IMG/VR virus record: IMGVR_UViG_3300028840_006907
Location: 288,001-352,000 of that record
Length of the DNA stretch: 64,000 bases
Direction: 5' to 3' (one strand)
Source: a virus
The notes under the pieces were generated by a model. That model did not search any database. It had not been told where the DNA came from and worked only from the letters and a program-made list of their open reading frames with translations. Both the position numbers and the translations under genes were made by a program. Below, in pieces: positions 7,611-27,858 of the stretch. Within the stretch, counting starts at the first letter, position 1, and every line of letters begins with the position of its first letter.

Positions 7611-7611
7611 A

Positions 7612-8247: not shown

Positions 8248-8401
8248 ACTTTGTCCTCGATGTGGGGAATTGGTACCATTCAATACATATTTTGGTGGGT
8301 ATTTTTGTAAGTGTGGTTGGAAAGATGATACTTTTGATAAAGAGCGTATTGCTGCTATGAGAAAATGGAAACTACCAAAATCTTCAGATGGAATTATTTA
8401 A
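8234..8401 (+). CDS. small zinc-ribbon protein (not in the ORF track, 55 aa)
   Basis: Translated by eye: MEAYKLCPRCGELVPFNTYFGGYFCKCGWKDD..., with a CxxC...CxC pattern. Its start overlaps the tmk stop. Confidence 0.3.
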   Translation: MEAYKLCPRCGELVPFNTYFGGYFCKCGWKDDTFDKERIAAMRKWKLPKSSDGII

Positions 8402-8693: not shown

Positions 8694-8930
8694 TAAATTT
8701 TATAGCCGATCAAAAATTAAAGATAATATAATGCATTTCTAAATTTCAAATTTCCTTTAATTCAAAGGGTATTTCAGTGTCTCTTTGTGGCTCTTCAGTT
8801 TAATAATCATTTAATATTAGCTTCTAATTAGGTAGAGTTATACAAGAAATATTTATGAATAAATTCGATTATCTATTAATAGTTAACCGTTTTAAAAGCA
8901 TAGAAAATCTTAGGAATAAAAAGAGGCTGT

Positions 8931-10280: not shown

Positions 10281-10342
10281 AAATTAGATATAAGAAGTCT
10301 CATTGAGACTATTCAATAAAATAATAAATAGGAATAAAAAAG

Positions 10343-11146
10343 ATGCCGAGATTAAGCTTTATTGTCACTGGACGAAATGACAATTATGACCAAAATTTTA
10401 ATGAACGTTTAACCATCGCTTTAAGAAGAAATATAAAATCCCTTCCAGACGCTGAATTCATTTTTGTAGAATGGAATCCTTATTTAGACCGCCCATTAAC
10501 ATGTTCAAAATTAAAAAGGACTTTTGGAGATCGAGTTAAATATTATGTAGTTCATCCTAAATATCATAAATATTATTGTAACATTGATGGTTTTCTTGAA
10601 TACCCTCCAAAAAATATCGGAATACGTAAGGCTACAGGTGAATTTATTATTTGTACAAATTCAGATGTAATTTTTTGTCCAGATCTAGTTCATTGTATGA
10701 ATATGCATTTGGAAAAAAATGTCCTTTATCGTGCTACTCGAATTGATATCCGACCAGATTATCTTAATGTAAGTTTCCCCCTTCATCCAAAATTTAAGCT
10801 TGAAACAAATCAAGGTCCTATGAATGCAGCGGGTGATTTTCTTTTAATGCATCGGGATCTATGGTATAAAACTACTGGTTATTGCGAGGAATACCCGTGG
10901 CAGAGATTACATAAAGATGCTCAGATAGTTTATTTGCTTTCTAATAAAAGAGGGTATGAAGTTCGAAACATAGGATCTATGACACATTGGAGACATCCTA
11001 GCTCCTGGTCTAATGGAAAATGTCGAGCTAGAGTAGGTGATGTGAATTGGGATTTTCAAAAATGTAATTACAAAATGAATAAAAAAACATGGGGTCTCAC
11101 GTTTACAGATGAGGTCGAAAAAGACGGCATAATTTGGCTAATTTAA
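10343..11146 (+). CDS. hypothetical protein, possible glycosyltransferase-like
   Basis: Starts 'LSFIVTGRNDNY' like the GT-A first beta-strand. 'NSDVIFCPD' is DxD-like. Weak. Confidence 0.35.
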   Translation: MPRLSFIVTGRNDNYDQNFNERLTIALRRNIKSLPDAEFIFVEWNPYLDRPLTCSKLKRTFGDRVKYYVVHPKYHKYYCNIDGFLEYPPKNIGIRKATGEFIICTNSDVIFCPDLVHCMNMHLEKNVLYRATRIDIRPDYLNVSFPLHPKFKLETNQGPMNAAGDFLLMHRDLWYKTTGYCEEYPWQRLHKDAQIVYLLSNKRGYEVRNIGSMTHWRHPSSWSNGKCRARVGDVNWDFQKCNYKMNKKTWGLTFTDEVEKDGIIWLI

Positions 11147-11176
11147 ATTTACATATAGATATTGAAAGGAGATTGT

Positions 11177-12151
11177 ATGAAACGTATATTGGTTACTGGA
11201 GCAGGCGGTTTTATTGGAGGCCATTTAGTCACTCGATTGAAAGAGGAGGGCTATTGGGTTCGTGGAGTTGATATTAAAGAGCATGAATATAAGAAGACTG
11301 ATGCAGATGAATTTTATCTTAAAGATTTGAGAATAATGCAAAATTGTCTTACTTCATGCGCTGATATTGATGAATGTTATACATTAGCTGCTGACATGGG
11401 TGGTGCAGGATTTGTTTTTACTGGTGAGAATGATGCTGATATCATGCATAATTCTGCGAAGATAAATTTAAATATGGCTGAAGCTTGCCGAATACAAGGA
11501 GTAAAGAAGATATTTTATTCCTCTTCAGCGTGCATGTATCCTGCTCATAATCAAACCGATCCGGATAATCCTTTACTTTCTGAGGATTCTGCTTATCCTG
11601 CAGCTCCCGATAGTGAATACGGGTGGGAAAAACTTTTCTCAGAACATCTTTATTTAGCTTATAACAAAAATTATGGACTGGATGTTCGTGTGGCAAGATT
11701 TCATAATATTTTTGGAGTTTTGGGAACATGGCAAGGTGGAAGAGAAAAAGCTCCTGCTGCATTGAATCGTAAAGTAGCTATGGCTAAAGATGGTGATGTA
11801 ATCGAAGTGTGGGGACCTGGTACTCAAACACGTTCTTTCCTTTATATAGAGGAATGTATTGAAGCAGTACGTCGTTTCATGGAATCAGATTTTTTAGGCC
11901 CTGTAAATATAGGTTCTGAAGAAATGATTTCAATAAACGATCTTGCGAAAATGGCCATAGATATTAGTGGTAAAAAACTTACTATCAAAAATGTGGAAGG
12001 TCCTGTAGGAGTTATGGGCCGTAATTCAGATAATAATTTATATGAAGAAAAGGTTGGATGGAGACCTTCAAAACCTTTACATTATGGTATGGAAAAGACT
12101 TATGCTTGGATAAGTGATCAAATTAAACAAATTTATCCCTTTAGAAAATAG
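11177..12151 (+). CDS. NAD-dependent sugar epimerase (GDP-mannose 3,5-epimerase-like SDR)
   Basis: RBS 'aaaggag' precedes the Met at 11177. 'ILVTGAGGFIGGHLV' and 'YSSSACMYPAHNQ...EYGWEKLFSE' resemble GME-type extended SDRs. Confidence 0.75.
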   Translation: MKRILVTGAGGFIGGHLVTRLKEEGYWVRGVDIKEHEYKKTDADEFYLKDLRIMQNCLTSCADIDECYTLAADMGGAGFVFTGENDADIMHNSAKINLNMAEACRIQGVKKIFYSSSACMYPAHNQTDPDNPLLSEDSAYPAAPDSEYGWEKLFSEHLYLAYNKNYGLDVRVARFHNIFGVLGTWQGGREKAPAALNRKVAMAKDGDVIEVWGPGTQTRSFLYIEECIEAVRRFMESDFLGPVNIGSEEMISINDLAKMAIDISGKKLTIKNVEGPVGVMGRNSDNNLYEEKVGWRPSKPLHYGMEKTYAWISDQIKQIYPFRK

Positions 12152-12154
12152 CTT

Positions 12155-12856
12155 ATGGAATTAATAACAAAAGCAGTTATAATGGCTGGTGGAGAGGGTA
12201 CTCGGTTAAGACCTTATACAGAAATGACTCCTAAAGCAATGTTAGAGGTTAACGGTATTCCTCTCTTACGTTTAATGATAGAGAGACTTCATAGTTTTGG
12301 TATAACTCATTTCTATTTAAGTGTAAATTATCTCTCGAAAGTAATCTGTGATTATTTCGGTGATGGATCTAAATTTGGGATTAATATCACTTATATAAAA
12401 GAACCTTATTCGATGGGGACCGCAGGTTCAATTAGTATGGTTGATATTGAAGAACCTTTTTTGGTTATAAATGGAGATGTTTATACCAGTCTTGATTTTA
12501 GAGATCTCTTTGTAGAATTTAGAAGATCTAAATCAGATCTATTAATATGTTGTAGGGAGCAATTATTAAAAACAGATTATGGTGTTATTGTAAAAGAAGA
12601 TGACAGGATAACTTCCTGGGTTGAAAAACCTGAGTTTACTCATTACATAAGTTGTGGTATCTATGTATTCAAACCAGAGATTGTAAAATATATACCTAAA
12701 GAACATTTTTTTAATATGAATCATTTAGCTGAAGCGGTTATTGAAAAGAATAAAAAAGCTGGATTTTATTTAATGGATGATCTAGATATCTGGATTGATA
12801 TAGGAACTATTGAAGAATATAATAAGGTCAAGGAATTGTTAACAGTAAAAAAATAA
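12155..12856 (+). CDS. sugar-phosphate nucleotidyltransferase
   Basis: 'AVIMAGGEGTRLRPYT' is the nucleotidyltransferase G-rich loop. About 230 aa. Confidence 0.8.
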   Translation: MELITKAVIMAGGEGTRLRPYTEMTPKAMLEVNGIPLLRLMIERLHSFGITHFYLSVNYLSKVICDYFGDGSKFGINITYIKEPYSMGTAGSISMVDIEEPFLVINGDVYTSLDFRDLFVEFRRSKSDLLICCREQLLKTDYGVIVKEDDRITSWVEKPEFTHYISCGIYVFKPEIVKYIPKEHFFNMNHLAEAVIEKNKKAGFYLMDDLDIWIDIGTIEEYNKVKELLTVKK

Positions 12857-12865
12857 GAGGATAAA

Positions 12866-13759
12866 GTGAGAGTTGTATTTATTGGTTGCGTCAATTTCAG
12901 TAAAGCAATGTTGGAATATGCTTTAGAAATAGAGTGCCTTGAAATAGTGGGTATCGTGACAAAATCAGAATCCAATTTTAATACAGATTTCTGTTCTTTG
13001 GCCCCTTTAGCCCAGGAACATAATATTTCTTATCTTTTATACGATCAATTAAAATCGGAAAGTGGACTCAATAGTTGGGTTGAATTAAAATTTCCTGATG
13101 TGATCTTTTGTTTTGGTTGGTCCCATTTATTAAAAGCTGAACTTATAGAAATTCCTAAAATAGGAGTCATAGGACATCATCCTACAATGCTTCCTAAGAA
13201 TAGAGGGCGACATCCAGTAATATGGGCGTTAGCTTTAGGATTGGAGTATACTGCTTCAACTTTTTTCTTTATAGATCCTGGGGTGGATTCTGGGGATATT
13301 CTAGATCAAATCCCTGTAAATATAAATTTTGATGATGATGCTAGTATTCTCTATCAGAAGATCACAGTGACTGCAGGAAAGCAATTAAAAACATTTTCTC
13401 CTCTTTTGGAGAAAGGAGAATATATAGTTGTTAAACAAGATATGAGTAAAGCTACATGGTGGAGAAAAAGGTCAAAAGCTGATGGATATATTGATTGGCG
13501 TATGAGTTGTTTTTCCATTCATAATTTAGTCCGGGCTTTGACTTGTCCTTATGTAGGGGCTCATTGTGAATTTAACAATAGGGATATAAAGATCTGGAAA
13601 GTTAGAATAATGTATAAAGGATTAGATGATATTGAACCAGGTAAAATAATCGATTTAAATAGAAATAAAAATGAAATCTATATAAAGTGCGGGGATGGAG
13701 TTATGTGTATCTATGATCATGAATTTGATCCTCTGCCTGAGATCGGAACTTATTTATGA
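12866..13759 (+). CDS. formyltransferase (sugar N-formyltransferase / Fmt-like)
   Basis: GTG start preceded by 'aagagg'. 'GHHPTMLPKNRGRHPVIWA' matches the formyltransferase catalytic loop (HxSLLPxxRG). Confidence 0.65.
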   Translation: MRVVFIGCVNFSKAMLEYALEIECLEIVGIVTKSESNFNTDFCSLAPLAQEHNISYLLYDQLKSESGLNSWVELKFPDVIFCFGWSHLLKAELIEIPKIGVIGHHPTMLPKNRGRHPVIWALALGLEYTASTFFFIDPGVDSGDILDQIPVNINFDDDASILYQKITVTAGKQLKTFSPLLEKGEYIVVKQDMSKATWWRKRSKADGYIDWRMSCFSIHNLVRALTCPYVGAHCEFNNRDIKIWKVRIMYKGLDDIEPGKIIDLNRNKNEIYIKCGDGVMCIYDHEFDPLPEIGTYL

Positions 13760-14415
13760 AAATTATTGCCATTGCACCTCATCCTGATGATGAGACTCTG
13801 GGATGTGGTGGTACACTCTTGAAGCATCGGGATGCCTCAGATGATATTTATTTGGTTCTTGTTACTACAGCAGGTTCTGAATACAGTGAAGAGCATATCA
13901 ATAATAAATACAAAGAAATAGATAATGCCAACGAGATTTTTGAATTTAAGACTATCTTCGATTTGGGTTTCCCTGTTACTCATATTGGTTCTATAGATAT
14001 ATCAGAAATAATTGGTAAACTAATGGACACATTTAAATTAGTGGGTCCCGATATTATTTATGTTCCTTTCCCGTATGATATTCATACTGATCATCAAGTT
14101 GTTTTTGATGCGGTTTCTTCGTGTACAAAATGGTTCAGAATACCTACTTTGAAAAGAATACTAGCCTATGAAACTATATCTGAAACAGATTTTATTATTA
14201 GACCCGGTCCTTCTTTTATCCCTAATGTTTTTGTCAATATTGAAGATCACATTGATAAAAAGATAGAGGCTATGAAATGCTATGCTAGTGAAATTGCTAT
14301 GCCTCCTTTTCCTCGTAGTGAGGAGAATATCAGAGCCCTGGCAACATTAAGAGGTTCAACATCTGGTTTCAAAGCTGCGGAAGCTTTCATGTTGTTAAAG
14401 GAGATAGATGAATGA
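13756..14415 (+). CDS. PIG-L/LmbE family N-acetylglucosaminyl deacetylase
   Basis: 'IIAIAPHPDDETLGCGGTL' is the PIG-L signature. Confidence 0.8.
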   Translation: MKIIAIAPHPDDETLGCGGTLLKHRDASDDIYLVLVTTAGSEYSEEHINNKYKEIDNANEIFEFKTIFDLGFPVTHIGSIDISEIIGKLMDTFKLVGPDIIYVPFPYDIHTDHQVVFDAVSSCTKWFRIPTLKRILAYETISETDFIIRPGPSFIPNVFVNIEDHIDKKIEAMKCYASEIAMPPFPRSEENIRALATLRGSTSGFKAAEAFMLLKEIDE

Positions 14416-15380
14416 GTAAAAAAGTTTTAGTTACTGGTGCAGGAGGATTTATAGGATCTCATTTAGTAAAACGGCTCATGGAATATGGGTATGATGTTAC
14501 AGCACTGGTAAAATATAATGCAAATGGTTCTTGGGGCTGGTTAGACACATTTCATCGTTCTGTAATCAAAGATATTAGAGTAGAGTTGGGTGATGTTCGG
14601 GATCCGGAACAAATGATGAGATATAAAAACATGGATATTATTTTCCATTTAGCTGCTTTGATAGGTATCCCTTATTCCTATGTAGCTCCTCGTTCATATG
14701 TCGATACCAATATAAACGGTACTTTAAACATGCTTCAGGTTTGTCGGGAAAATGGAGCTACTTATATTCATACATCAACTTCTGAGGTATATGGTACAGC
14801 CCTTTATGAACCTATTGATGAAAAACATCCTATCCAAACACAGAGTCCATATTCAGCTACAAAAAGTGCTGGAGATAGTTTAGCAAAGAGTTATTATCTT
14901 TCCTTCGATTTGCCCGTTATTATAGTAAGACCATTCAATACTTTTGGAACACGTCAATCTTTAAGAGCTGTTATTCCCACTATTATCAGTCAGGCATGTA
15001 AAGATGATGTTATAAAACTTGGAGATCCAAGTACCATGAGAGATTTCATTTTTGTGGATGATACTGTAGAAGGCTTTATAAAGGCCGCTGAGAGGGGAAA
15101 ATCTGGAGAGACTTATAATATAGGTTATGGCAAAAAAAGGTCAATAAGAAGTATTGTGGATGACGTAGGCAATATATTAGGTAAAGTTTTAAAAATTGAA
15201 TCGGAACCAGAGAGAATGCGACCTCCGAAGAGTGAGGTAAGAGTTCTTGTTTGTAATAATGAAAAAGCAAAAAAAGAATTGGGATGGGATATTAAATGGC
15301 CTTTTAAAAAAGGGTTGGAATATTTGATCTACGATTGGCAACGAGAAAACAAAGAAAGTAAAGATTTTTATCATGTCTAG
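14412..15380 (+). CDS. NAD-dependent nucleotide-sugar epimerase/4,6-dehydratase (extended SDR)
   Basis: 'VLVTGAGGFIGSHLV'. Catalytic 'YSATKSAGD' (YxxxK). About 320 aa. Confidence 0.85.
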   Translation: MSKKVLVTGAGGFIGSHLVKRLMEYGYDVTALVKYNANGSWGWLDTFHRSVIKDIRVELGDVRDPEQMMRYKNMDIIFHLAALIGIPYSYVAPRSYVDTNINGTLNMLQVCRENGATYIHTSTSEVYGTALYEPIDEKHPIQTQSPYSATKSAGDSLAKSYYLSFDLPVIIVRPFNTFGTRQSLRAVIPTIISQACKDDVIKLGDPSTMRDFIFVDDTVEGFIKAAERGKSGETYNIGYGKKRSIRSIVDDVGNILGKVLKIESEPERMRPPKSEVRVLVCNNEKAKKELGWDIKWPFKKGLEYLIYDWQRENKESKDFYHV

Positions 15381-16449
15381 TATATTTTTACACATACCTC
15401 ATATAGGGGAAGAGGAAAAGGCAGAAGTAAATAAGGCTCTTAATACTGGAGAATTGACCTGTGGAAATTATTTAAATCAATTTGAAAAAGAATTAAGTGA
15501 AAGGATAAATTCTCCTGTTGTTTTATGCTCTTCTGGAACAGCAGCTTTGCAATTAGGTCTACATGCTATGGGTATAGGTCCAGGAGATGAAGTAATTGTT
15601 CCTAATATGTCTTTTGTTTCGACTATAAATTCTGTTTTATATATGGGTGCTACCCCAGTTTTGTGCGATGTAGGTGATCCTGAATACGAGCTTTCCATTG
15701 ATCCTGAAGAAATAATCGATCTCATAACTCCTCGAACTAAAGCTATAATGGTATCTCATCTTTGTGGGGGATACGGTGACATTGAAAAGATATTAGATAT
15801 AGCTAGTGCGTATAAAGTTGATGTCATTGAAGATGCTGCTCAGGCAGTAGGTTGTACTATGAATGGCAAAGCTTTGGGAACATTTGGAAAGTTTGGTGTC
15901 TATTCATTTAATGGGAATAAAATTATCACCACAGGTGGTGGAGGCACTCTTTTAACTTCAGATCGTGGAATGAGTCAGAGAGTACGAAATCTTCTTAATC
16001 AAGCGAAAGACATTTTAAATCCTTTTTCTCATATAGAGATGGGGTATAATTATAGAATCAGTAATATCCATGCTGCGATAGGTTGTGCTCAATTAAAAAA
16101 ATTAGACTCTTTTATTGATAAGAAAAAATTTATTCATGAGACCTATAAAAAGAAGTTAGACATAATAACTTATAAGGAAAAATCCAATTATTGGTTGAAT
16201 GTTTATAAAGTAAAAAAATTTAATCCTTATGAAGCTGTTTGGAATCTGGATTACAAAAGCATAGAGACTCGTCCTATTTATACCCCTTTTCATATGATGG
16301 ATTTTCTTAAAAAATATGGTGAGGATGAATACCCGGTTTCAGAGAAATTATATAACAGTCTTTTTTGTTTGCCATCTTATTTATCTCTTGATGAAGAGAT
16401 AATCGATAAAGTAGTGGATGAAATAAATAATTTGGAGAATAGTGAATGA
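15373..16449 (+). CDS. DegT/DnrJ/EryC1/StrS-family PLP-dependent sugar aminotransferase
   Basis: 'CSSGTAALQLGL'. 'FSFNGNKIITTGGGG' carries the PLP lysine. Typical length. Confidence 0.85.
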   Translation: MSSIFLHIPHIGEEEKAEVNKALNTGELTCGNYLNQFEKELSERINSPVVLCSSGTAALQLGLHAMGIGPGDEVIVPNMSFVSTINSVLYMGATPVLCDVGDPEYELSIDPEEIIDLITPRTKAIMVSHLCGGYGDIEKILDIASAYKVDVIEDAAQAVGCTMNGKALGTFGKFGVYSFNGNKIITTGGGGTLLTSDRGMSQRVRNLLNQAKDILNPFSHIEMGYNYRISNIHAAIGCAQLKKLDSFIDKKKFIHETYKKKLDIITYKEKSNYWLNVYKVKKFNPYEAVWNLDYKSIETRPIYTPFHMMDFLKKYGEDEYPVSEKLYNSLFCLPSYLSLDEEIIDKVVDEINNLENSE

Positions 16450-17141
16450 AAAAACATATCCTTTTGATGTTTAATATGGGAAATAGTGGTGGGAAGTATT
16501 TCGAAGATATTTGTAATACTCACGAAGATGTTCAGATATGGCAAGAAGCAAATCACCTTTTAAAAGTAGATCATCTTGAGACACCAGTTCAGTTCGACAG
16601 GGTATATGCTTTTTTCATGAAACAGTATGAAGAAAATAAGAAAAAAACCATCGGATTAATAAAAGCTTTTGATCATCGGTTAATAGGATTGGCTGAAAGA
16701 ACTGGTGGGTCTATCATGCAGATGTTCAGACATCCTGTAGGTGTGGTGGGTTTTAAGACAGGCCATAAAATGGCTGAGTGTGAACAGAGAGGTTTGTTTG
16801 ACAAACTAGACACACCTGAAAAGATTTTTGAAGCTCATGTGGATTTTTATGCCTCAATATATAATTCCTATACGAAGAATGCTCATAAGTGGCCTGTTGT
16901 TAAATTAGAGGATTTAAAAAAGTCTTTACGGGAAAGAACTCCGTATTTTGAAGATGTAATGAAAAAAGCGCTGAAAGTTGACTGGCAACCGAAACATACA
17001 AAAAAAGTTATTAATATGGGAGGGCTTGAAGAGAATAGAGATCATTTTGATATTTGGAAATCATGGGAAGATTGGAAGAAAGATATTTTTCTGAAGTATT
17101 TCCAGGAAATAATGAAATTGTATATGTATGAATGGGAATGA
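16446..17141 (+). CDS. sulfotransferase-like protein (paralog of 20367..21158)
   Basis: 'NMGNSGGKYF' is a 5'-PSB-like Gly-rich loop. 'MFRHPVGVVGF' is 3'-PB-like. The C-terminus 'IWKSWEDWKKDIFLKYFQEIM' is shared with the paralog. Confidence 0.4.
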   Translation: MKKHILLMFNMGNSGGKYFEDICNTHEDVQIWQEANHLLKVDHLETPVQFDRVYAFFMKQYEENKKKTIGLIKAFDHRLIGLAERTGGSIMQMFRHPVGVVGFKTGHKMAECEQRGLFDKLDTPEKIFEAHVDFYASIYNSYTKNAHKWPVVKLEDLKKSLRERTPYFEDVMKKALKVDWQPKHTKKVINMGGLEENRDHFDIWKSWEDWKKDIFLKYFQEIMKLYMYEWE

Positions 17142-17155
17142 TAGGAGGACGAAGT

Positions 17156-18151
17156 ATGAAAAATTTGGAAATCATAGCTGAGTTCGGAACTAATCATGTC
17201 GATCCTAATGGTAAAGTTCTTGAAAATATTGAGGATTTGATACATACACTAGCAGACAAAGGAGCGACTGCAGTTAAATTTCAGCTTTTTAAAGCTGATA
17301 ATTTAGTAGAAAAGAATACTGAAGTACATGGCCTTATAAAAAATTTGGAAATTGCTCTTGAAGAGCATGTCAGATTAAAAAAGATCTGCGAAGAAATAGG
17401 TTTGCGGTATCTTTGCACTCCTTTTTGCGTTGAGTCTTTGGATGCTCTTCTTAGTATAGGAGTAAAGGAAATAAAAATAGCCAGTTGTGATTGTGGTAAT
17501 TTACAATTGATGTCAGATATTGTACAACGTCATAACAAAATTCATCGAGTTATAATGGCTACAGGTATGTCAACATTGAATGAAATTGGTGTTTCCATTG
17601 ACATCCTTATTGATGGAGGATTTAATATTGATCTTTTACATTGTACAAGTGTTTACCCTACACCGATATACCGAGCTTCTCTAGACATGATAAGAGTCTT
17701 AAAAAAGAAGTGGGGTTTATTTAATATAGGATATTCGGATCATACATTGGGGACTGAAGTGGTGGGTATAGCCCGAGCTATGGGTTGTACCATTTTTGAA
17801 AAGCATGTAACTCCTGATAGAACAATGCCCGGTTTTGATCATGCTTATTCTTTTCCTATTGATGAATTTGATAAATATGTCGATGCTATCAAGAATGTCG
17901 ATCAGATAATAGGAGAAGAAAGAAAATACGTAGATAAAAAAGAAGCAGTATCTCGTGATGCCATGAAAAGAGGCATATGGTTTAAAAAAGAAGTGTTTAA
18001 AGGGCAGAAAATAACCAGAGATGATATCATTGTACGAAGACCGTTGAAAGGGGCCGTTAACCAGACTTACTATTTTTCTGTTCTTGGTAAAAAAGTAAAG
18101 AAGAATTTTAATGAGGATGATCCCGTTTTAACGGAGAATTTATATGAGTAA
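17156..18151 (+). CDS. N-acylneuraminate/nonulosonic acid synthase (NeuB/PseI/LegI family)
   Basis: RBS 'aggagg' before the Met at 17156. 'IAEFGTNHVDPNG...VKFQLFKAD' resembles the NeuB TIM-barrel N-terminus. C-terminal SAF-like region. Confidence 0.75.
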   Translation: MKNLEIIAEFGTNHVDPNGKVLENIEDLIHTLADKGATAVKFQLFKADNLVEKNTEVHGLIKNLEIALEEHVRLKKICEEIGLRYLCTPFCVESLDALLSIGVKEIKIASCDCGNLQLMSDIVQRHNKIHRVIMATGMSTLNEIGVSIDILIDGGFNIDLLHCTSVYPTPIYRASLDMIRVLKKKWGLFNIGYSDHTLGTEVVGIARAMGCTIFEKHVTPDRTMPGFDHAYSFPIDEFDKYVDAIKNVDQIIGEERKYVDKKEAVSRDAMKRGIWFKKEVFKGQKITRDDIIVRRPLKGAVNQTYYFSVLGKKVKKNFNEDDPVLTENLYE

Positions 18152-19052
18152 AATAGGAATTCGATGTGATTGTGGACCGGTAATGGGCATGGGTCATATA
18201 TCTAGGCAGAAACTTATTTATGAAGAACTCATGAAATTGGACCACGAAGTTTCTTTTTTTGTAAAAAGAGAACGGAACATAGTTAAATCAATGGGACTTC
18301 CACTTTCAAATAAGATTTTAATGGATACAATGGATACTTTGATAATTGATTTAGTGGAAGGTTTTGAGGATTATGATTTTCCTCGAACTAAAATAGTTTT
18401 TTATGATGGTCCGGAAATGATACATTGTGATGCTGATATCATTTTTGCTTTAAATTATAAACAACAGAAATCCTGGTATAGAGGAACGGGTTATTATGTT
18501 GGGCTAGATTATATCCCGATGGATCCCAGCATTTCTAAAATAGAGAAAGAATTTGGTAATTTAGAAAAAATATTAATTATGACAAGTGGAATCGATCCTT
18601 GGGATATGCCAGGACAAATAGTTAGAGTTATTAAGGATCTGGGTTATGACATCACAGTTAAATTATCTAATGCTTATCCAAAAGATTGGATCAGTAAACT
18701 TGAGAAACATGCTGAGATAATTTTAAATGTGGATAGTGTTGCTTCATTATATGAAGAATATGATTTAATGATATGTACTGCAGGAAATGTGTTGTTCGAG
18801 GCTGCTGTAGCTGGTTTACCCTGTATAAGTTTTTCGACGGGTAAAGTTCAGGAGGGCCATGGGGCGTTTATGAGTGACAAAGGTTTTTCAGTTCATCTTG
18901 GAGGCTTTTGGAATAATACTGCTGAAGTTGGTTATTTGTCTGATGCTATAAAATTTTTAGCTGATAGATCGGATAGAGAACAAAGATCTGAGATAGGTCG
19001 TTCTATTTGTGATGGTAAAGGATTAGAAAGGATAATAAATATTATAGGGTAA
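18144..19052 (+). CDS. PseG/LegG-like UDP-sugar hydrolase (GT28-like fold)
   Basis: 'IGIRCDCGPVMGMGHISRQ' resembles the PseG N-terminal Gly/His loop. Sits between the NeuB-like and cytidylyltransferase genes. Confidence 0.45.
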   Translation: MSKIGIRCDCGPVMGMGHISRQKLIYEELMKLDHEVSFFVKRERNIVKSMGLPLSNKILMDTMDTLIIDLVEGFEDYDFPRTKIVFYDGPEMIHCDADIIFALNYKQQKSWYRGTGYYVGLDYIPMDPSISKIEKEFGNLEKILIMTSGIDPWDMPGQIVRVIKDLGYDITVKLSNAYPKDWISKLEKHAEIILNVDSVASLYEEYDLMICTAGNVLFEAAVAGLPCISFSTGKVQEGHGAFMSDKGFSVHLGGFWNNTAEVGYLSDAIKFLADRSDREQRSEIGRSICDGKGLERIINIIG

Positions 19053-19055
19053 AAT

Positions 19056-19718
19056 ATGAAAACTATCGCATTTACATTGCCAGTAAGAAAGAACAGTCAA
19101 AGAGTAAAAAATAAAATGTTAAGACCTTTTGCAGGGAGAAGTTTATTTGAGATCTATTTGGATAAAATCGAATGTTTCAAACATTTGGTTTATGTTGTTG
19201 CCTATGAAGAAGAATTTATTAACATAGCTAAAAAAAGGGGATTTAAATATCTTCATAGAAGTGAAGAGTCTGCTAATGGGGAAACTTCTCCAGTTATCCA
19301 TAGTTATTTAAATGAGATGAAAGAAGATTTCATTTTTATGGCAACTGCGTGTTGTCCTTTGATGAAGACAGAGACTTTGAAAAATATCATGGTAGAGCTA
19401 TGTTCAAAACTCCATGATCCTAATTATCACGGTTTAATAACTGTAAAAAGATGTGGTAATGCTATTTGGAATTCAGAGAAGAAAGTAATGAATGATGATG
19501 TTCGAACTTTCAATACTAAGTTAAGAAAACCTTTTTACATCGAGACTAGTTCCGTTTTTGTTTTTAGACGTGAAAGATTTCTTAAACTAGGTGCATATTG
19601 GGATTTTGGTGATAAAGATCCCGATCTTTATGAAATTAATTCAATTGAAGCTACTGATATTGATACAATGGATGATTTCGAAGTAGCTGAAATACTTTAC
19701 AAAAGAAGGTTGTCATGA
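19056..19718 (+). CDS. CMP-nonulosonic acid synthetase (acylneuraminate cytidylyltransferase family)
   Basis: 'IAFTLPVRKNSQRVKNKMLRPFAG' is the CTP_transf_3 N-terminal motif. Confidence 0.65.
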   Translation: MKTIAFTLPVRKNSQRVKNKMLRPFAGRSLFEIYLDKIECFKHLVYVVAYEEEFINIAKKRGFKYLHRSEESANGETSPVIHSYLNEMKEDFIFMATACCPLMKTETLKNIMVELCSKLHDPNYHGLITVKRCGNAIWNSEKKVMNDDVRTFNTKLRKPFYIETSSVFVFRRERFLKLGAYWDFGDKDPDLYEINSIEATDIDTMDDFEVAEILYKRRLS

Positions 19719-20374
19719 AAAATTATGGCTATGCTGATATGAGTGAAAAAGAAAAATTATCTAAAGAACAAGTATTAGAATTTTGGAAAAATCCTATAAA
19801 CGATAATACTAATAAAAATGAGAACAATGATCCTGAGCATTATTTGAGTGGGGAAAAACGTAGCCGATATCTCGTTGAATTAATTAAAAGGCATTTACAT
19901 AAAGAAGCAAAAATATTAGAGATTGGTTGTAATGTCGGGAGGAATTTGCATTATCTATATGAAACAGGTTATAACAATTTAAATGGGATAGAAATTAATG
20001 ATAATGCTGTTCAAGTGATGCATAAAAATTATCCCGAATTATATGGAAGTGTAGGAATTTATAATTGTCCGGTTGAATCTATTATTACATCTTTTTCCGA
20101 TGAAGCCTATGACTTGGTCTTTACAATGGCTGTTTTAGAGCACATTCATTATGAGAGTGATTTCATTTTCTCTGAGATAGCTCGGGTAGCCAAAAGATGT
20201 ATAATTACAATTGAAGATGAAAAAACTACCTGGAGTAACAGACATTTTCCTCGTAATTATAAGGAGGTGTTTGAGAAGATCGGGAATTGGGTACAGATTT
20301 ATGATATGAATTGTGGTGGGATTAATATACTTGATGATCGATTTTGGGTAAGGGTATTTAAAAAGAATGTCTAA
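19715..20374 (+). CDS. class I SAM-dependent methyltransferase
   Basis: Motif I 'ILEIGCNVGRNL'. Post-I acidic 'LVFTMAVLEHI'. Confidence 0.75.
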   Translation: MKNYGYADMSEKEKLSKEQVLEFWKNPINDNTNKNENNDPEHYLSGEKRSRYLVELIKRHLHKEAKILEIGCNVGRNLHYLYETGYNNLNGIEINDNAVQVMHKNYPELYGSVGIYNCPVESIITSFSDEAYDLVFTMAVLEHIHYESDFIFSEIARVAKRCIITIEDEKTTWSNRHFPRNYKEVFEKIGNWVQIYDMNCGGINILDDRFWVRVFKKNV

Positions 20375-21158
20375 ACGAATAGTGTTAGTCAGAAATATGG
20401 GAAACAGTGGCGGTGCCTGGTTAATGAAGGTATTTAATATGCATGAAAACATATTAATGTTTCAGGAATTAAACCAGATACTGAGGTTAAGATATGATTA
20501 TTCGGATATAAATAAGAAGAATCTAAATTACCCTCATGTTGACTATGATGTAAAAATAGCTCAACGGAGTCGTGATCTTAAAGGATTTTTATTTAATAGT
20601 AGAACTCAGTGTCATATAGCAACTAGTTTTCTTTTATATCAATATGATATTAGAAAAGAAGATGCGATTGGGTTAATAAAATGTTTTGATCATGAATCTA
20701 TAAGAGAATGTAGAGTAAAATGTCCTTCTGTTAAAGTTGTACAAGTTTTAAGAAATCCTATTGGTATAATAGATTTTTATATGAGTCAGGAAAATTTAAG
20801 GCAAATAGCCCATCATGATCCATATGAAATATCTTTTAAAAAACATGTGGATTTCTTTCATAATAAATTTATAGATTTTTGGGAAAATAATGAAAAAAAA
20901 GGTGAGAAAATTATACGACTAGAAGATTTGAATATATCATTGAAAGATGGAAATCCTTTCTTAAAAGACACTATGGAAGATTTATTTGAAGTTAATTTCT
21001 CAAATGAATTTATTGAAAAAATCAAACAAAATTTAGGTTATGGGAATGAAGGTAACCAGAATAAAGAGATATGGCAAAACTGGGAAGGATGGAAAAAAGA
21101 ATATTTCAAGAAATATTTCGAAAATCTAATGATGAATCTTGGCTATGAATTGAGGTGA
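20367..21158 (+). CDS. sulfotransferase-like protein (paralog of 16446..17141)
   Basis: 'RNMGNSGGAWL'. 3'-PB-like 'VLRNPIGIIDFYMS'. Conserved C-terminus 'IWQNWEGWKKEYFKKYFENLM'. Confidence 0.4.
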   Translation: MSKRIVLVRNMGNSGGAWLMKVFNMHENILMFQELNQILRLRYDYSDINKKNLNYPHVDYDVKIAQRSRDLKGFLFNSRTQCHIATSFLLYQYDIRKEDAIGLIKCFDHESIRECRVKCPSVKVVQVLRNPIGIIDFYMSQENLRQIAHHDPYEISFKKHVDFFHNKFIDFWENNEKKGEKIIRLEDLNISLKDGNPFLKDTMEDLFEVNFSNEFIEKIKQNLGYGNEGNQNKEIWQNWEGWKKEYFKKYFENLMMNLGYELR

Positions 21159-21161
21159 TAA

Positions 21162-21737
21162 ATGAATTTATTTGAATCTGCGTACTATACTGAAGAGGAT
21201 CTGAGAAAAGGCGGTTTTAAAAGTGTCGGTAAAAATGTTCAGATTGATAAAAGTTGCACGATAATAGGCTTAGATAAAATCACTCTAGGAGATAATGTTC
21301 GAATCGATGGTTACTGTTGTATTATTGCCACAAAAGAGGAAGTGATTTTCGGTTCTTATATTCATATAGGTTCGTTTTGTCATCTCTGTGGAACTGCAGG
21401 TCTTATAATGAAAGATTTTTCAGGTTTGTCACAAGGAGTTCGAATTTACTCCTCTTCTGATGATTATTCAGGAAAGTTTTTAACTAATCCAACTGTTCCC
21501 GATAAATACACAGGTATAATAAGAGAACCAGTTATTATAGGTAAACATGTTATAATCGGGGCTAATACTGTTATTCTTCCAGGAGTTGTTATAGGTGATG
21601 GGTCAGCTATTGGTGCCATGTCCCTTGTAACAAAAGACGTAGATAAAAATAGTGTCTATGCAGGTTGTCCAGCGAAATTTATAAAAACACGTTCAAAAAG
21701 AATATTTGATTTAGAGAAGAGGTTATTAAATGAATAA
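21162..21737 (+). CDS. hexapeptide-repeat (LbH) sugar acetyltransferase
   Basis: Repeating [LIV]G-x-x-x-x hexapeptides: 'IGANTVILPGVVIGDGSAIGAMSLV'. NeuD/PglD-like size. Confidence 0.8.
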   Translation: MNLFESAYYTEEDLRKGGFKSVGKNVQIDKSCTIIGLDKITLGDNVRIDGYCCIIATKEEVIFGSYIHIGSFCHLCGTAGLIMKDFSGLSQGVRIYSSSDDYSGKFLTNPTVPDKYTGIIREPVIIGKHVIIGANTVILPGVVIGDGSAIGAMSLVTKDVDKNSVYAGCPAKFIKTRSKRIFDLEKRLLNE

Positions 21738-22443
21738 ATCAATTTTCATATGTTCAGGAGGTCGATGTGGTACACATTGGGTTCGGCCTATTCTTGCTCA
21801 GCTTTTAGATTTACAAACTGGGTTTGATTGGAAAGGATATAATCCAAATAAAATTCCCTTTAAAACAGAACCTGGAGCTATTTGGAAAATAAAGATGGTA
21901 GAAAAGAGAGAGCCAGGAGGAAGGATTTATTCAGGGCATATGCCAATTACAGAACTTCTACCTATTATCAGTTTAGTAAATATAATAATTCTTATAAGAG
22001 ATCCTAGAGATATGTGTGTTTCGGCTGCATATTATACTCCAGAAAGAAGAGTATTAACTCAAGAAGAATTTGAATCTAAATTTAATAATTTATTAATACA
22101 AGGAAGCCCGAATCCTGATTTTCATGAATCTTATATAGAAAGTAAGAATAAAATACCTCATTTTTTATTAAAATATGAAGATATGATTCATGATGATTAT
22201 GGCTCAATAGTTAAATTTTTAAATAATTCAGGTTATAAATTTGAAGAAGAAAAATTAAAATATGTACTTGATAAAAACTCATTCAAGAATTTATCAGGTG
22301 GACGAGAAGCCGGTGAGGAGGATAATACCGCTTTTTATAGAAAAGGTATTGTGGGTGATTGGGTAAATTATCTCTCTAATGGTTTACTTGAACAATATAC
22401 CGATAGGCATAAAACTTTGTTGGAAGAATGGGGGTATATGTAA
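21730..22443 (+). CDS. sulfotransferase family protein
   Basis: 'IFICSGGRCGTHW' is 5'-PSB-like. 'IRDPRDMCVSAAYY' matches the 3'-PB motif well (R-x-P-x-D-x-x-V-S-x-Y). Confidence 0.6.
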   Translation: MNKSIFICSGGRCGTHWVRPILAQLLDLQTGFDWKGYNPNKIPFKTEPGAIWKIKMVEKREPGGRIYSGHMPITELLPIISLVNIIILIRDPRDMCVSAAYYTPERRVLTQEEFESKFNNLLIQGSPNPDFHESYIESKNKIPHFLLKYEDMIHDDYGSIVKFLNNSGYKFEEEKLKYVLDKNSFKNLSGGREAGEEDNTAFYRKGIVGDWVNYLSNGLLEQYTDRHKTLLEEWGYM

Positions 22444-22444: not shown

Positions 22445-23116
22445 ATGGAAGATTATTTTGAACAAATGGTAACAGTTTTTAAAAAGTACTTTAAAGAGTA
22501 TTATCGTAATGTATTCACAAATCAATCAGTGGAAACCTGTACAGGTATTTATAATCTTTGTAAAAAAGAAAATCCAGATCAAGTAGTGGAAATGGGAACC
22601 AATCATGGGGCTTCTACTCTTTCTATAGTAAAAGCACTGACTGATTTAGGGAAAGATTTGTCTATTATTACTTCAATTGATTTAGACCACGAGAAATGGA
22701 AGGCAACATTTAATATACAAAAAGAATTGATTAAAAAGTATGATTTAAATTTAGGAAAAGTAAAATTAATAACTCAAGATTTTAATTCAGTAGATCCTGT
22801 AGAAATAATTGACCCTGAAAAGAAAGTATTTATTTTTTATGATATGCATGATCATCGAGGCCCATGGTCACAGAGACTACTTGATTTATGGGTACCTTTA
22901 GTTAAGAATGGTGTCTTCTCTATTCATGATGTAACTCCTGTAAGTGAATCCTTTGAAATAGTTCAGGATAAAATTTCCCCTCGAACAAAGATACAGTATA
23001 AGAGTGGGCAGTATTTTGCAGGTTTCAATGAATGTTTTCGAATAATAAAATGGGCAAATACAAATAACATAAATATAGAGATATTTCCAGGAGGAGTATA
23101 TTTCAGAAATGGCTAA
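22445..23116 (+). CDS. putative SAM-dependent methyltransferase (CmcI/TylF-like)
   Basis: Start at 22445 immediately follows the upstream stop. 'VVEMGTNHGASTLSIV' is motif I-like. Confidence 0.45.
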   Translation: MEDYFEQMVTVFKKYFKEYYRNVFTNQSVETCTGIYNLCKKENPDQVVEMGTNHGASTLSIVKALTDLGKDLSIITSIDLDHEKWKATFNIQKELIKKYDLNLGKVKLITQDFNSVDPVEIIDPEKKVFIFYDMHDHRGPWSQRLLDLWVPLVKNGVFSIHDVTPVSESFEIVQDKISPRTKIQYKSGQYFAGFNECFRIIKWANTNNINIEIFPGGVYFRNG

Positions 23117-23795
23117 CATTTTTATTGGAAAAAATATGTCAAATATAAAAAATATTCCTGGTTTAAATAAAATAACAAAGATACATGATGTGGCTGATTA
23201 TGTGAGATTAGCTGATTTTGTCTATAAAACAATTTCCCATTCTATGGATAGTGGGATTGATTTAGATTATTCTGTTAATCAATTGTATTGGCAATTTGTG
23301 AATAAAAAGAGATTTGGATGGTGCTATATGCATGCTCTGTATTATCATCTTATAGTACAAGAATATGGTCGTGAATCTTTTGTTTATGATTATGGCTTAC
23401 CAGCGCCACAATTAACTCATAGTGTTGTTGTAGTAACTTTACGTGATGATAAGTATTTAATTGATCCTTATTTTAATCGTTATTATGTAACAGAAAAAGG
23501 GAATCCGTATACATTTCCTGACTTATTGGCTATGATAAAAACTGATCCAACAAAAATTTATAGTAAATATGGACCTGGTTTGAAAGAAGTTAAACAGGGA
23601 GATAAATATATAGAAACTTCTCCTGAACAATTTGAAAAAGGAGTATTGGAATCGTGGCGAGTAAATCAGAATTATGATAAAATAATGATGGAAAAATTTA
23701 ATAGCACAAATGCATTATTATTAATGCATTGTAAAGTACAAAAAGCTAAAGTATGTAAAAAAATAGATGGGACAAAGTATTTTGACTTTTTCTAA
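23109..23795 (+). CDS. hypothetical protein with transglutaminase/NAT-like Cys-His-Asp arrangement
   Basis: 'GWCYMHA' (GxCxxxA), 'THSVVVVTL' and 'IDPYF' in the order of a papain-like triad. Confidence 0.35.
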   Translation: MANIFIGKNMSNIKNIPGLNKITKIHDVADYVRLADFVYKTISHSMDSGIDLDYSVNQLYWQFVNKKRFGWCYMHALYYHLIVQEYGRESFVYDYGLPAPQLTHSVVVVTLRDDKYLIDPYFNRYYVTEKGNPYTFPDLLAMIKTDPTKIYSKYGPGLKEVKQGDKYIETSPEQFEKGVLESWRVNQNYDKIMMEKFNSTNALLLMHCKVQKAKVCKKIDGTKYFDFF

Positions 23796-24570
23796 TGTTA
23801 TATCCTTTATCAGTGCATTTAAAAAGTTTAAACCTCCTTATGGTATGATACAGCATTCTGCTATGTATTCATGGAATGCTAATAATATTGAAGTATTTGT
23901 TCCAGATAATGAGGTTGGAGTTAAAGATGCTTGTCAGAGTTATCCTAATATTAAATTAATCCCCGATGTTAAACGGGCTCGGGAAATGGGCTTTTCAAAT
24001 CAGTCTCCTATGGTAAAAGATCTGATTGCAAAAGCTCTACCTTTAATCAATACTCCGATGGTAGCTTTAATTAATTCAGACATTATAATTCAACCTGATT
24101 TTATAGAAAGAATAGAAAAAATACTGAAAGAATACGGTTTTGATATTTATATGGTGGGAACTCGATTTGATATTAAATTGGATATTCATATAAGTTCGGA
24201 AGAGACATATAAACAGGTATTGAGTTCAGAACGAAAAAGTTATGATGGCAGTACTTCTTCAGATATATTTATAGCTTCTAAATTTACCTGGAGGAAGATA
24301 GTTCATGAAATGCCTGATTTTATTCTAGGTCGGTATGGGTGGGATAATTGGTTACATATGATTGCAGAACTTAAAGGATATCGTAAATTTAATTGTACAG
24401 ATGCTTTGACTATTCTTCATTGTGAGCATGATCATAAGCATATAGTTCTTCAGGAAAAGGCTGAAAAACAAAGTGCTCCAAGTTCACAGCATAATTTAAA
24501 GTTATGGAATGAAGTAAAAAATGTTTATGGGACGACCAGGATAAATGCATGGCCAAAAATTGAAATATAA
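23767..24570 (+). CDS. hypothetical protein
   Basis: ORF in operon context. No confident motif. Confidence 0.4.
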   Translation: MGQSILTFSNVISFISAFKKFKPPYGMIQHSAMYSWNANNIEVFVPDNEVGVKDACQSYPNIKLIPDVKRAREMGFSNQSPMVKDLIAKALPLINTPMVALINSDIIIQPDFIERIEKILKEYGFDIYMVGTRFDIKLDIHISSEETYKQVLSSERKSYDGSTSSDIFIASKFTWRKIVHEMPDFILGRYGWDNWLHMIAELKGYRKFNCTDALTILHCEHDHKHIVLQEKAEKQSAPSSQHNLKLWNEVKNVYGTTRINAWPKIEI

Positions 24571-24661
24571 TAGGGGTAAAGAAGTTTCTCTACCCCTACA
24601 TGCACATTTTAACCACAATCCCATCTTATGGCTAAAAATATAATAAAAGGATGATACAAGA

Positions 24662-25480
24662 ATGAACCTTCTTCAGAGAGTAAAAAAATATTGGGATGAT
24701 AGACCCTGTAATATACGCCATTCAAAGGAACCCGTTGGAACCAGAAATTATTTCAATGAGGTTGAATATAAAAAATATAAAGTTGAACCGCATATATCAG
24801 GTTTCGCTGATTTTAATAAATGGAAGGATAAAAAGGTCCTTGAGATAGGCTGTGGGCTGGGCACTGAGACTATAAATTTTGCTAGAGCTGGTGCTAGGGT
24901 TGTCGCTGTGGATATGTCTGAGAAATCTTTGGAGCTGGCTAAGAAACGAGCGGAAGTTTTTGGCTTGTCCGATAAGATTACATTTTATCAGGGAAATGCT
25001 GAAGAACTTGATAAATTTATCCCAGCTCAGAAATTTGATCTTATCTGGTCTTTTGGTGTTATTCATCATACCCCGAATCCTGAGAACGTTATTGAATGTA
25101 TCAAGAAGTACCTGTCTCCAAGCAGTGAATTACGAATGATGGTTTATAATAAATTTAGTTGGAAAGTATTCTGGATCCTTTTTAAGTACGGGAAGTTTAA
25201 GTTTTGGGATATTGATAAATTCATAGCTCAAAATTCAGAAGCTCAGACCGGGTGCCCAATCACCTACACTTATACAAATAAATCAGTTCAAAAATTACTA
25301 AAAGGGTTTGTAATCGATAATATTAAAATTGAGCATATTTTTCCTTATAAAATTCGTGAATATAAGGAGAATAAATTCAAATTTATCTGGTATTTTAGAT
25401 ACCTGCCCAAATGGTTTTTTCATTGGTTAGAAAAGAGAATCGGTTGGCATATGTGCATAATCGCCAGATGGAGAATTTAG
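24662..25480 (+). CDS. class I SAM-dependent methyltransferase
   Basis: Motif I 'VLEIGCGLGTETINFARAGARVVAVDMS'. Post-I 'DLIWSFGVIHH'. Confidence 0.8.
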   Translation: MNLLQRVKKYWDDRPCNIRHSKEPVGTRNYFNEVEYKKYKVEPHISGFADFNKWKDKKVLEIGCGLGTETINFARAGARVVAVDMSEKSLELAKKRAEVFGLSDKITFYQGNAEELDKFIPAQKFDLIWSFGVIHHTPNPENVIECIKKYLSPSSELRMMVYNKFSWKVFWILFKYGKFKFWDIDKFIAQNSEAQTGCPITYTYTNKSVQKLLKGFVIDNIKIEHIFPYKIREYKENKFKFIWYFRYLPKWFFHWLEKRIGWHMCIIARWRI

Positions 25481-27856: not shown

Positions 27857-27858
27857 TT

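Follow-up and report, generated by a model that had tools for sequence, protein, structure and literature searches.

Bacteria and archaea carry nonulosonic acids (NulOs) as key sugars of surface recognition, and phages are known to tailor or bind these sugars. Here we describe a gene cassette, probably for the synthesis of such a sugar, in a 64,000-nucleotide stretch of an IMG/VR virus record (IMGVR_UViG_3300028840_006907, positions 288,001 to 352,000; hereafter the window). One of the closest described routes is the legionaminic acid (Leg) pathway of Campylobacter jejuni (PtmE, LegB, LegC, LegH, LegG, LegI and LegF), with which the cassette shares its logic and, by best family match, its first two committed enzyme types. 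In both, a nucleotidyltransferase, a dehydratase and an aminotransferase are followed by N-acylation, nucleotide removal, a NeuB-family synthase and a CTP_transf_3 activator. The cassette differs in that a PseG-like GT-B protein replaces the Epimerase_2 protein LegG, the N-acyltransferase is AntD-like and not NeuD/PglD-like, the nucleotidyltransferase has no CBS domains, the scores lie below the equivalog cutoffs and the location is, very probably, a phage. It also adds a PIG-L protein, a formyltransferase, a methyltransferase and three sulfotransferase-fold genes.

The Leg pathway of Bacillus subtilis (SpsM, C, D, G, E and F; PMC7439481) differs from the C. jejuni route, requiring SpsG as a step after the acetyltransferase and before the synthase. 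Its dehydratase is of the PglF/SpsM type (Polysacc_synt_2) and acts on UDP-N-acetylglucosamine, whereas that of the cassette is LegB-type; the sps genes include none for formyl, sulfo or methyl tailoring, and their product is used for the spore crust. SpsG presumably belongs to the PseG family, and would then provide the same nucleotidase solution as the cassette.

Among phages, jumbo phages carry clusters that encode epimerases/dehydratases, nucleotidyltransferases and several glycosyltransferases (GTs) (Iyer et al. 2021, PMC7824862). The lipopolysaccharide (LPS)/capsule clusters of jumbo phages, above all of T4-like cyanophages, have in common with the present locus paralogous short-chain dehydrogenases/reductases (SDRs), a sugar-1-phosphate nucleotidyltransferase, several GT families and a variable content. 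They are not described with a nonulosonate synthase, activation with cytidine monophosphate (CMP) or sulfotransferases (PMC7824862), and the glycan-synthesis island here extends over about 35 kb (4336-39759). The features that define such clusters (SDRs, a nucleotidyltransferase, GT families and a genome of >200 kb) are all found here, on a replicon that is probably a phage. Mycobacteriophages decorate their own capsid and tail proteins with their own GTs, a precedent for virion glycosylation (Freeman et al. 2023, as cited in PMC12619734). In Acinetobacter, prophage O-acetyltransferases and EpaA/EpaB are likewise phage genes that act on sugars of the pseudaminic acid (Pse) or Leg type (PMC6586298, PMC12053666). 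These prophage modules consist of one or two tailoring genes for a sugar that the host makes, whereas the cassette would cover the whole route from sugar-1-phosphate to CMP-NulO. To our knowledge, the mycobacteriophage GTs come without a de novo rare-sugar pathway and do not involve a NulO.

Our reading of the locus, to which we assign a probability of about 0.62 on the sequence evidence, is that positions 12155-22443 form a translationally coupled cassette of 13 genes for a legionaminic-type NulO, set within the glycan-synthesis island of a tailed megaphage of about 469 kb (Table 1). Between 12866 and 23795 the genes on the + strand overlap by 4-65 bases or lie 3 bases apart, with a 9-base gap before 12866, and this spacing fits one translationally coupled operon. 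The original prediction had proposed a NulO pathway at 14412-21737, listing six enzymes there and five further ones upstream. All six are present and intact in the order given, as judged by Pfam and NCBIfam scores, and the upstream five (a nucleotide-sugar dehydrogenase, an epimerase resembling GDP-mannose 3,5-epimerase (GME), the nucleotidyltransferase, the formyltransferase and the PIG-L protein) were each confirmed by family or PDB matches. The count needs amending, as the interval holds nine open reading frames (ORFs), among them an S-adenosylmethionine (SAM)-dependent methyltransferase and two family-less paralogues that had been overlooked. As a natural unit the interval is also too short; it contains the pathway, and the segment that is inherited together is the longer one of Table 1.

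Table 1 Genes of the cassette, followed by the surrounding parts of the island (positions in the window; NDP, nucleoside diphosphate; HexNAc, N-acetylhexosamine; PLP, pyridoxal phosphate; LbH, left-handed beta-helix; PDH, pyruvate dehydrogenase; aa, amino acids)
Feature	Position	Strand	Evidence or content
Sugar-1-phosphate nucleotidyltransferase, first cassette gene	12155-12856	+	PF00483, 128 bits
Formyltransferase, ArnA-N/Fmt-like, N and C domains	12866-13759	+	PF00551 and PF02911
PIG-L family de-N-acetylase	13756-14415	+	PF02585, 75 bits
NDP-HexNAc 4,6-dehydratase, LegB-like extended SDR	14412-15380	+	TIGR04180, 390 bits
PLP-dependent 4-aminotransferase, LegC-like DegT	15373-16449	+	PF01041, 312 bits; LegC, 304 bits
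Sulfotransferase-fold protein, small uncharacterised family	16446-17141	+	Structure model
Nonulosonic acid synthase, NeuB/LegI-like, with SAF domain	17132-18151	+	PF03102, 198 bits; PF08666
PseG-like GT-B protein, presumed NDP-sugar hydrolase	18144-19052	+	TIGR03590, 64 bits, E 2e-17
CMP-sugar synthetase, CTP_transf_3 cytidylyltransferase	19056-19718	+	PF02348, 39.9 bits
SAM-dependent methyltransferase	19715-20374	+	PF08241, 45 bits
Paralogue of 16446-17141, sulfotransferase fold by inference	20367-21158	+	29% identity
LbH N-acyltransferase, AntD-like	21162-21737	+	PDB 3VBI-3VBP series, 157 bits
Canonical sulfotransferase, last cassette gene	21730-22443	+	PF00685, 81 bits (cutoff 22)
Left frame	4336-12151	+	994-aa GT2-GT1-methyltransferase fusion, dTMP kinase, nucleotide-sugar dehydrogenase, 267-aa GT-A-like ORF, GME
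Right frame	22445-25480	+	Methyltransf_24, 228-aa arylamine N-acetyltransferase-like ORF, 267-aa GT-A-like ORF, 272-aa methyltransferase
Second glycan block	26948-39759	-	PDH E1 alpha-/beta-like proteins, radical SAM protein, FkbM methyltransferase, GT10, GT2s, 684-aa methyltransferase-GT2 fusion, unknown ORFs

The two committed enzymes place the pathway. For the dehydratase, LegB is the best family, matched over the full length (E 4.5e-117; curated cutoff 475 bits); the SDR motifs GAGGFIG (GxxGxxG), STSEVYG and YSATK (YxxxK) are intact, and counterparts in two related contigs, L008 and L038, are 70-76% identical. The aminotransferase is matched best by LegC (TIGR04181, cutoff 420 bits), against 207 bits for PseC, and keeps its PLP lysine (K183 in SFNGNK); its best named PDB relatives are GDP-perosamine synthases. 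Both synthase domains score above their Pfam gathering scores, and the NeuB_NnaB model (244 bits) exceeds PseI (179 bits), both being below cutoff. Since the dehydratase and aminotransferase match LegB and LegC best and the NeuB/LegI model scores above PseI, the pathway is predicted to be legionaminic-type, LegB/LegC-like, rather than pseudaminic-type, with the scores of hidden Markov models used as a proxy for trees against reference enzymes. A pseudaminic acid pathway was considered and rejected, as PseB and PseH are lacking and the Leg models score higher; the PseB model (TIGR03589, Polysacc_synt_2 type) gives 58 bits against a cutoff of 408.

For the synthase, the original prediction had named a loss of catalytic residues as grounds for abandoning the pathway. 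The catalytic and metal-binding residues of Neisseria meningitidis NeuB (1XUU) are kept: E17, K49, Q51, K115, S118, H204 (SDH motif), H225, D236 and R303 of the SAF domain are all conserved. The two substitutions seen, E134->D and N184->S, both also occur in the Leptospira NeuB structure 6NCS, which is the best PDB match of the protein, and SpsE (PDB 1VLI, 98 bits) is also among its best solved relatives. The nearest named relatives are annotated NeuB/LegI and are at most 39% identical. The closest cellular NeuB (39% identity) belongs to a canonical Leg cluster with an Epimerase_2 protein (LegG) and a CBS-nucleotidyltransferase (PtmE-like).

Nucleotide removal appears to be performed by the PseG-like protein in place of LegG. 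Its TIGR03590 match is below the cutoff of 154 bits and a direct sequence search of the PDB gave no match. A family profile built from the protein and its relatives matches C. jejuni PseG (3HBM, E 2e-13), and the match covers the N-terminal GxGHxxR motif, the catalytic His of which is H18 in the protein of the window. Its link to nucleotide removal is supported by a homologue that adjoins NeuB in Omnitrophota and Methanomicrobiaceae metagenome-assembled genomes (MAGs), and by the need for SpsG in the B. subtilis Leg route. The cytidylyltransferase passes the PF02348 cutoff (22.6 bits) and has a sub-cutoff match to PseF (TIGR03584, 48 bits); no PDB sequence match was found. At the other end of the route, the nucleotidyltransferase is matched best among NCBIfam models by mannose-1-phosphate guanylyltransferase (136 bits), with the archaeal GlmU N-domain at 130 bits, and is a candidate supplier of the NDP-HexNAc substrate in a PtmE-like role.

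The LbH enzyme matches the PDB 3VBI-3VBP series over its full length, and within this series 3VBN is Bacillus cereus AntD, the N-acyltransferase of dTDP-4-amino-4,6-dideoxyglucose (PMC6031040). We presume that it acylates the 4-amino group, which later becomes N7 of the product. It had been predicted as an LbH N-acetyltransferase; we retain the LbH fold and a presumed role in N-acyl transfer, but an enzyme that resembles AntD, a 4-amino-sugar N-acyltransferase, need not transfer acetyl. Its best NCBIfam name is that of the O-acetyltransferase WbbJ, a role that we rejected since the full-length AntD match is much stronger. The LegH/NeuD-PglD model TIGR03570 gives 48 bits over the C-terminal hexapeptide region only (cutoff 161). 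The AntD-like enzyme can plausibly do the job of LegH.

On these family assignments, a CMP-activated 5,7-diamino nonulosonate, as first proposed, is the best reading of the product. In the route that we propose from homology, the nucleotidyltransferase would make the NDP-HexNAc, the LegB-like SDR would convert it to a 4-keto-6-deoxy sugar and the LegC-like aminotransferase would yield the 4-amino sugar. The AntD-like enzyme would then acylate the 4-amine, or alternatively the ArnA-like formyltransferase would formylate it, and the PseG-like GT-B enzyme would strip off the nucleotide. The NeuB/LegI-like synthase would join the free 6-deoxy-hexosamine with phosphoenolpyruvate to give a 5,7-diamino-3,5,7,9-tetradeoxy-nonulosonate, from which the CTP_transf_3 enzyme would make the CMP-sugar. 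Tailoring is less certain: the PIG-L protein and the formyltransferase would probably swap an N-acetyl group for another N-substituent, and the methyltransferase and the three sulfotransferase-fold proteins would add further modifications.

N-formylation of the product, which the original prediction had raised as a possibility, is plausible. The formyltransferase matches the ArnA N-domain (109 bits) and Fmt (93 bits) in the PDB and keeps the catalytic His and Asp, and the translated PIG-L gene shows the HPDDE and HTDH metal motifs. In a Micrarchaeota MAG, genes for LegB, LegC, NeuB, PIG-L and formyltransferase are clustered, which supports de-N-acetylation and N-formylation as parts of NulO pathways. 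The best NCBIfam match of the methyltransferase is 'pseudaminic acid biosynthesis-associated methylase' (45 bits, below cutoff).

The three sulfotransferase-fold genes are the PF00685 gene and the two paralogues at 16446-17141 and 20367-21158 (E 2e-34 to each other). The fold of the paralogues was assigned from a confident structure model, for 20367-21158 by way of its relationship to the other. Their family is small, with only about 10 close relatives in 5.8 billion protein clusters and 57 representatives in 1.84 billion. A single Arg is invariant, R95 in an R-x-P motif, and could be the arginine that binds the 3'-phosphate (3'-PB); an activity dependent on 3'-phosphoadenosine-5'-phosphosulfate is suggested by the modelled fold. 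The two ORFs had also been considered as the missing N-acetyltransferase or 2-epimerase, roles that were discarded on finding the sulfotransferase fold instead. The gene call on record for 20367-21158 starts 30 bases downstream (253 aa); in alignment with the paralogue and relatives, the shared NMGNSGG loop requires the upstream ATG (263 aa). Outside the island, 49032-49610 is a fourth ORF of sulfotransferase-like character (PHROG 'galactose-3-O-sulfotransferase', E 1e-7).

Several observations weigh against our reading as a whole. All matches to NulO-specific NCBIfam models are below cutoff, so that none of the proteins is an equivalog of a characterised enzyme. No match to the hydrolysing 2-epimerase LegG (Epimerase_2, PF02350) was found among the window ORFs scanned, and no match to the Gcn5-related N-acetyltransferase (GNAT) family, to which PseH belongs, in the cassette; lacking a LegG-type 2-epimerase, the cassette could yield legionaminic acid or another stereoisomer, depending on whether C2 is epimerised. 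The PseG-like protein may act as a glycosyltransferase and not hydrolyse the nucleotide sugar. In the formyltransferase, the Asn of the N-x-H motif is replaced by Gly (IGHHPT, residue 102), which makes its activity less certain. The paralogues have an invariant N-terminal NMGNSGG loop with no Lys or Arg at the usual 5'-phosphosulfate-binding (5'-PSB) position, and matched no Pfam sulfotransferase model even at E up to 10. Family scans recognised no NulO transferase of the sialyltransferase or Maf families, and the target of glycosylation, taken up below, is reached by inference only. As to the replicon, the ORFs scanned in the 84 kb inspected for phage hallmarks include no recognisable capsid, portal or terminase gene, and IMG/VR scans with the NeuB-like and LegB-like proteins gave no close relatives.

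The limits of the cassette emerge from the comparison with related contigs. The window, L008 (49 kb) and L038 (16 kb) have a common gene order from the nucleotide-sugar dehydrogenase to the last methyltransferase, with 38-76% amino acid identity and all ORFs intact. Within this order the N-acyl slot varies, being occupied by the AntD-like LbH enzyme in the window, a different LbH protein in L038 and a Formyl_trans_N protein in L008. The cassette methyltransferase is present in L008 and absent from L038, and the number of sulfotransferase-fold paralogues also varies (L008 has three copies of the family). Two larger contigs, L040 (JGI 3300037245 contig Ga0392328_0000002, 512,380 bp) and L041 (590 kb), keep most of the island frame and have no counterpart of any ORF in 12155-22443. 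What they keep is, on the left, the GT2-GT1 fusion, the dehydrogenase, the 267-aa ORF and GME, and on the right the last three genes, with Methyltransf_24 in L040 only. The nucleotidyltransferase and the PF00685 sulfotransferase are both present in L008 and L038 and both absent from L040 and L041, and it is this co-inheritance that sets the natural limits of the unit and brings the nucleotidyltransferase into it.

Other glycan genes lie at or near this locus in relatives. Upstream of its frame, L040 has genes for a dihydrodipicolinate synthase-like protein, a DAHP_synth_1 protein (the family of 3-deoxy-D-manno-octulosonic acid (Kdo)-8-phosphate synthase), a methyltransferase and a CTP_transf_3 protein (L040:226-3622), which may be a different, Kdo-type ulosonic acid module. 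The IMG/VR viral contig L039 (UViG_3300038499_000016), syntenic with window positions 34711-53315, has a different glycan block at the corresponding position (GT47-like, DegT and methyltransferases). On these patterns, the cassette is an exchangeable module within a locus that is hypervariable across the phage lineage.

In the left frame, the dehydrogenase (8931-10280) matches TIGR03026 with 335 bits (cutoff 190), and GME (11162-12151) matches Arabidopsis GDP-mannose 3,5-epimerase (2C59) with 353 bits. A 'nucleotide-sugar epimerase' with about 60% identity to GME occurs in 42 phage records, the majority from T4-like cyanophages (S-SSM7, S-T4 and P-TIM68 among them), which suggests that phages share a gene pool for GDP-L-galactose/L-gulose synthesis. 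The 267-aa ORF at 10343-11146 has about 75 relatives, some of them on contigs of 469,535, 474,422, 512,380 and 589,645 bp. It was considered as the NulO transferase and set aside, as it is also kept in relatives without the cassette.

In L008 the dehydrogenase is 640 aa long with an Intein_splicing match (L008:1666-3588), and in L041 GME is 647 aa long with a faint LAGLIDADG match (L041:10827-12770); the window copies of both genes are without an intein. On the right, the 228-aa ORF (23109-23795) is conserved in the lineage and may be a cysteine-dependent acyltransferase, its arylamine N-acetyltransferase match (PF00797, 22.1 bits) falling just below the cutoff of 22.8. In the second glycan block, a radical SAM gene (355 aa) lies between two truncated PDH E1-like genes, one alpha-like (208 aa) and one beta-like (174 aa; 27859-30038 in all, - strand); these could serve a thiamine-dependent two-carbon branching or another unusual sugar modification.

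To ask what the sugar is for, we considered how a glycan could be assembled. Genes for a flippase, a polymerase, a ligase or an initiating phosphoglycosyltransferase are absent from the window. The island has many soluble GTs, including the GT-methyltransferase fusions of 994 and 684 aa; a protein with GT2, methyltransferase and tetratricopeptide repeat (TPR) domains is encoded just upstream of the window, and the island adjoins a block with a virion-protein homologue. The lack of membrane assembly enzymes and the many soluble GTs, one of them bearing TPRs, argue for a glycan built in the cytoplasm on a soluble acceptor. We tentatively propose the virion proteins of the phage itself as the target, at somewhat less than even odds; the host surface or flagellin we consider somewhat less likely as the destination, and the remaining probability goes to another or unknown acceptor.

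With the same chemistry, the phage could instead supply CMP-NulO and nucleotide sugars to the glycosylation machinery of its host (LPS/capsule, S-layer, flagellin/pilin), so that receptors are altered and superinfection is blocked during a long or pseudolysogenic infection. Exactly this role has been proposed for jumbo-phage clusters (Iyer et al. 2021, PMC7824862), Acinetobacter prophages do encode enzymes that modify host NulOs (PMC6586298, PMC12053666), and both the cyanophage-like GME and the hypervariable cassettes, which resemble O-antigen loci, would fit it. Against it stand the absence of such assembly enzymes, and of any other polytopic membrane protein, from the 64 kb, and the phage's own many soluble GTs, multidomain methyltransferase fusions among them, which suggest self-contained cytoplasmic assembly; an integrase or lysogeny gene was not seen either. 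We hold supply to the host to be less likely than virion glycosylation, though a serious competitor to it.

Both uses presuppose a phage. The replicon is very probably a tailed megaphage, and we regard its phage identity as highly likely. Its size of about 469 kb comes from two contigs of independent origin, 469,617 and 469,260 bp long, on which identical proteins are found. The GC content of the densely coding window is about 32%, and Shine-Dalgarno motifs lie upstream of 49 of its 71 ORFs (69%, against a chance background of 17%). The ORF at 46054-46431 matches phrog_3758 'virion structural protein' (E 7e-10), and the 490-kb Agrobacterium phage Atu_ph07 and phage Milano encode homologues of it. 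The C-terminus of a 1228-aa ORF is tail-fibre-like; after this ORF come others of 1158, 741 (Laminin_G_3) and 1305 aa. An 835-aa fusion (53409-55916, - strand) joins an HNH/DUF7487 homing-endonuclease-like region to a Mom-like DNA-modification domain, a second HNH/EndoVII gene is a separate 391-aa ORF directly upstream of the window (L007:4764-5939), and precomputed Pfam matches assign 50788-51252 to the Tad3 (anti-Thoeris) family.

Beyond these matches, searches for phage relatives returned little. PHROGs and Pfam gave no phage hallmark for the 492-, 592-, 1228-, 1158- and 741-aa ORFs and many smaller ones, and megablast of window positions 28000-52000 against GenBank phages had zero matches. 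In tblastn, the 492-aa ORF likewise gave no match, and eleven ORFs from 39997-50816, joined into a sequence of 2,784 aa, gave no more than two short local ones. The 592-aa ORF (41453-43231), which contains a SWIM-like CxC...CxH motif, matches a 'tail protein' of the 309-kb Tunturiibacter phage Tunturi_5 over a short local stretch and is 44% identical to an ORF on L039. On that contig, a 519-aa protein (L039:16487-18046) also combines a poly(A) polymerase/CCA-adding head domain with RNA-binding and HD domains, without a counterpart at this place in the window.

A different origin would make the island the ordinary protein-glycosylation or envelope locus of a small cellular genome, from the candidate phyla radiation (CPR), DPANN or a symbiont, or of a megaplasmid. 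We find this improbable. It would account for the unrecognised major capsid, portal and terminase and for the isolation of the NeuB-like and LegB-like proteins in IMG/VR; 469 kb is within the size range of the smallest cells, and the Micrarchaeota MAG has a similar LegB-LegC-NeuB-PIG-L-Fmt cluster. A cell or megaplasmid is, however, hard to reconcile with what the sequence holds. In the 64 kb plus flanks there are no housekeeping or membrane-transport genes; tRNA and Rfam scans of the window gave zero matches, with no rRNA, and most of its ORFs match no family. The virion-structural PHROG match, the giant tail-fibre-like ORFs, the Mom/HNH fusion, Tad3, the homing endonucleases and the inteins of the lineage are phage-like, and the syntenic relative L039 is listed as viral in IMG/VR. 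The replicon is not contained in any GTDB species genome. A bacterial LPS or capsule locus, the other outcome that had been named as fatal to the original prediction, is not recognisable here, given the phage-like surroundings, the absence of polytopic membrane proteins from the 64-kb window and the absence of any relative of >34% identity among the GTDB species-representative genomes.

A giant virus of eukaryotes was also considered, and rejected on account of the Shine-Dalgarno motifs and the operon-like gene overlaps. DNA glycosylation that depends on CMP-NulO is not known to us. That the sugars hypermodify the phage DNA by glycosylating modified bases, rather than proteins or polysaccharides, is very improbable: the Mom-like domain and the dTMP kinase lie in or beside the island and some viruses are documented to encode GTs that add diverse glycans to their DNA (Pyle et al. 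2024, as cited in PMC12619734), but neither a hydroxymethyl-pyrimidine synthase nor a DNA glycosyltransferase family was detected near the cassette, and the island's set of GT2, GT4, GT10, O-methyltransferases and sulfotransferases is typical of glycan decoration.

Taken as a phage-borne cassette, the locus has few parallels. Cellular NulO pathways, jumbo-phage glycan clusters and phage genes that tailor host NulOs are already known. NeuB homologues occur in 3 of 50,697 GenBank phage records, one of which is a Moritella contig and the other two of which share only parts of the pathway. In open-access full text we found no paper that links jumbo phages, megaphages or giant viruses with nonulosonic acid synthases, and no report of a phage that makes nonulosonic acids from scratch; a large phylogeny of NulO synthases does not mention viruses. 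A complete phage-borne route to a CMP-nonulosonate thus appears to be rare.

A wider proposal, which goes well beyond our reading of the cassette and which we think rather doubtful as a whole, is that this lineage of 0.47-0.59 Mb phages keeps a 'serotype' locus in which one complete ulosonic-acid cassette replaces another, with a cassette for a Leg-type NulO here and possibly a Kdo-type module in the 512-kb relative. The product would be a sulfated, methylated NulO, N-formylated or otherwise N-acylated, made with the help of a new sulfotransferase-fold family and put on the phage's own virion proteins. We know of no bacterium, archaeon or virus from which a nonulosonic acid with these modifications has been described.

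The locus gains further interest from its sulfotransferase-fold family and from an architecture in which cassettes are swapped. If our reading is correct, it would provide new enzymes for the chemoenzymatic synthesis of rare NulOs, namely the LegB/LegC pair with the PseG-like hydrolase, the AntD-like N-acyltransferase and the sulfotransferase-fold family. It would also bring sialic-acid-like sugars within the scope of viral auxiliary metabolism. The relatives that have the cassette and those that lack it are a ready comparative framework, and the lineage would offer a natural test of how very large phages use glycans, as a coat for the virion or for the editing of host receptors.

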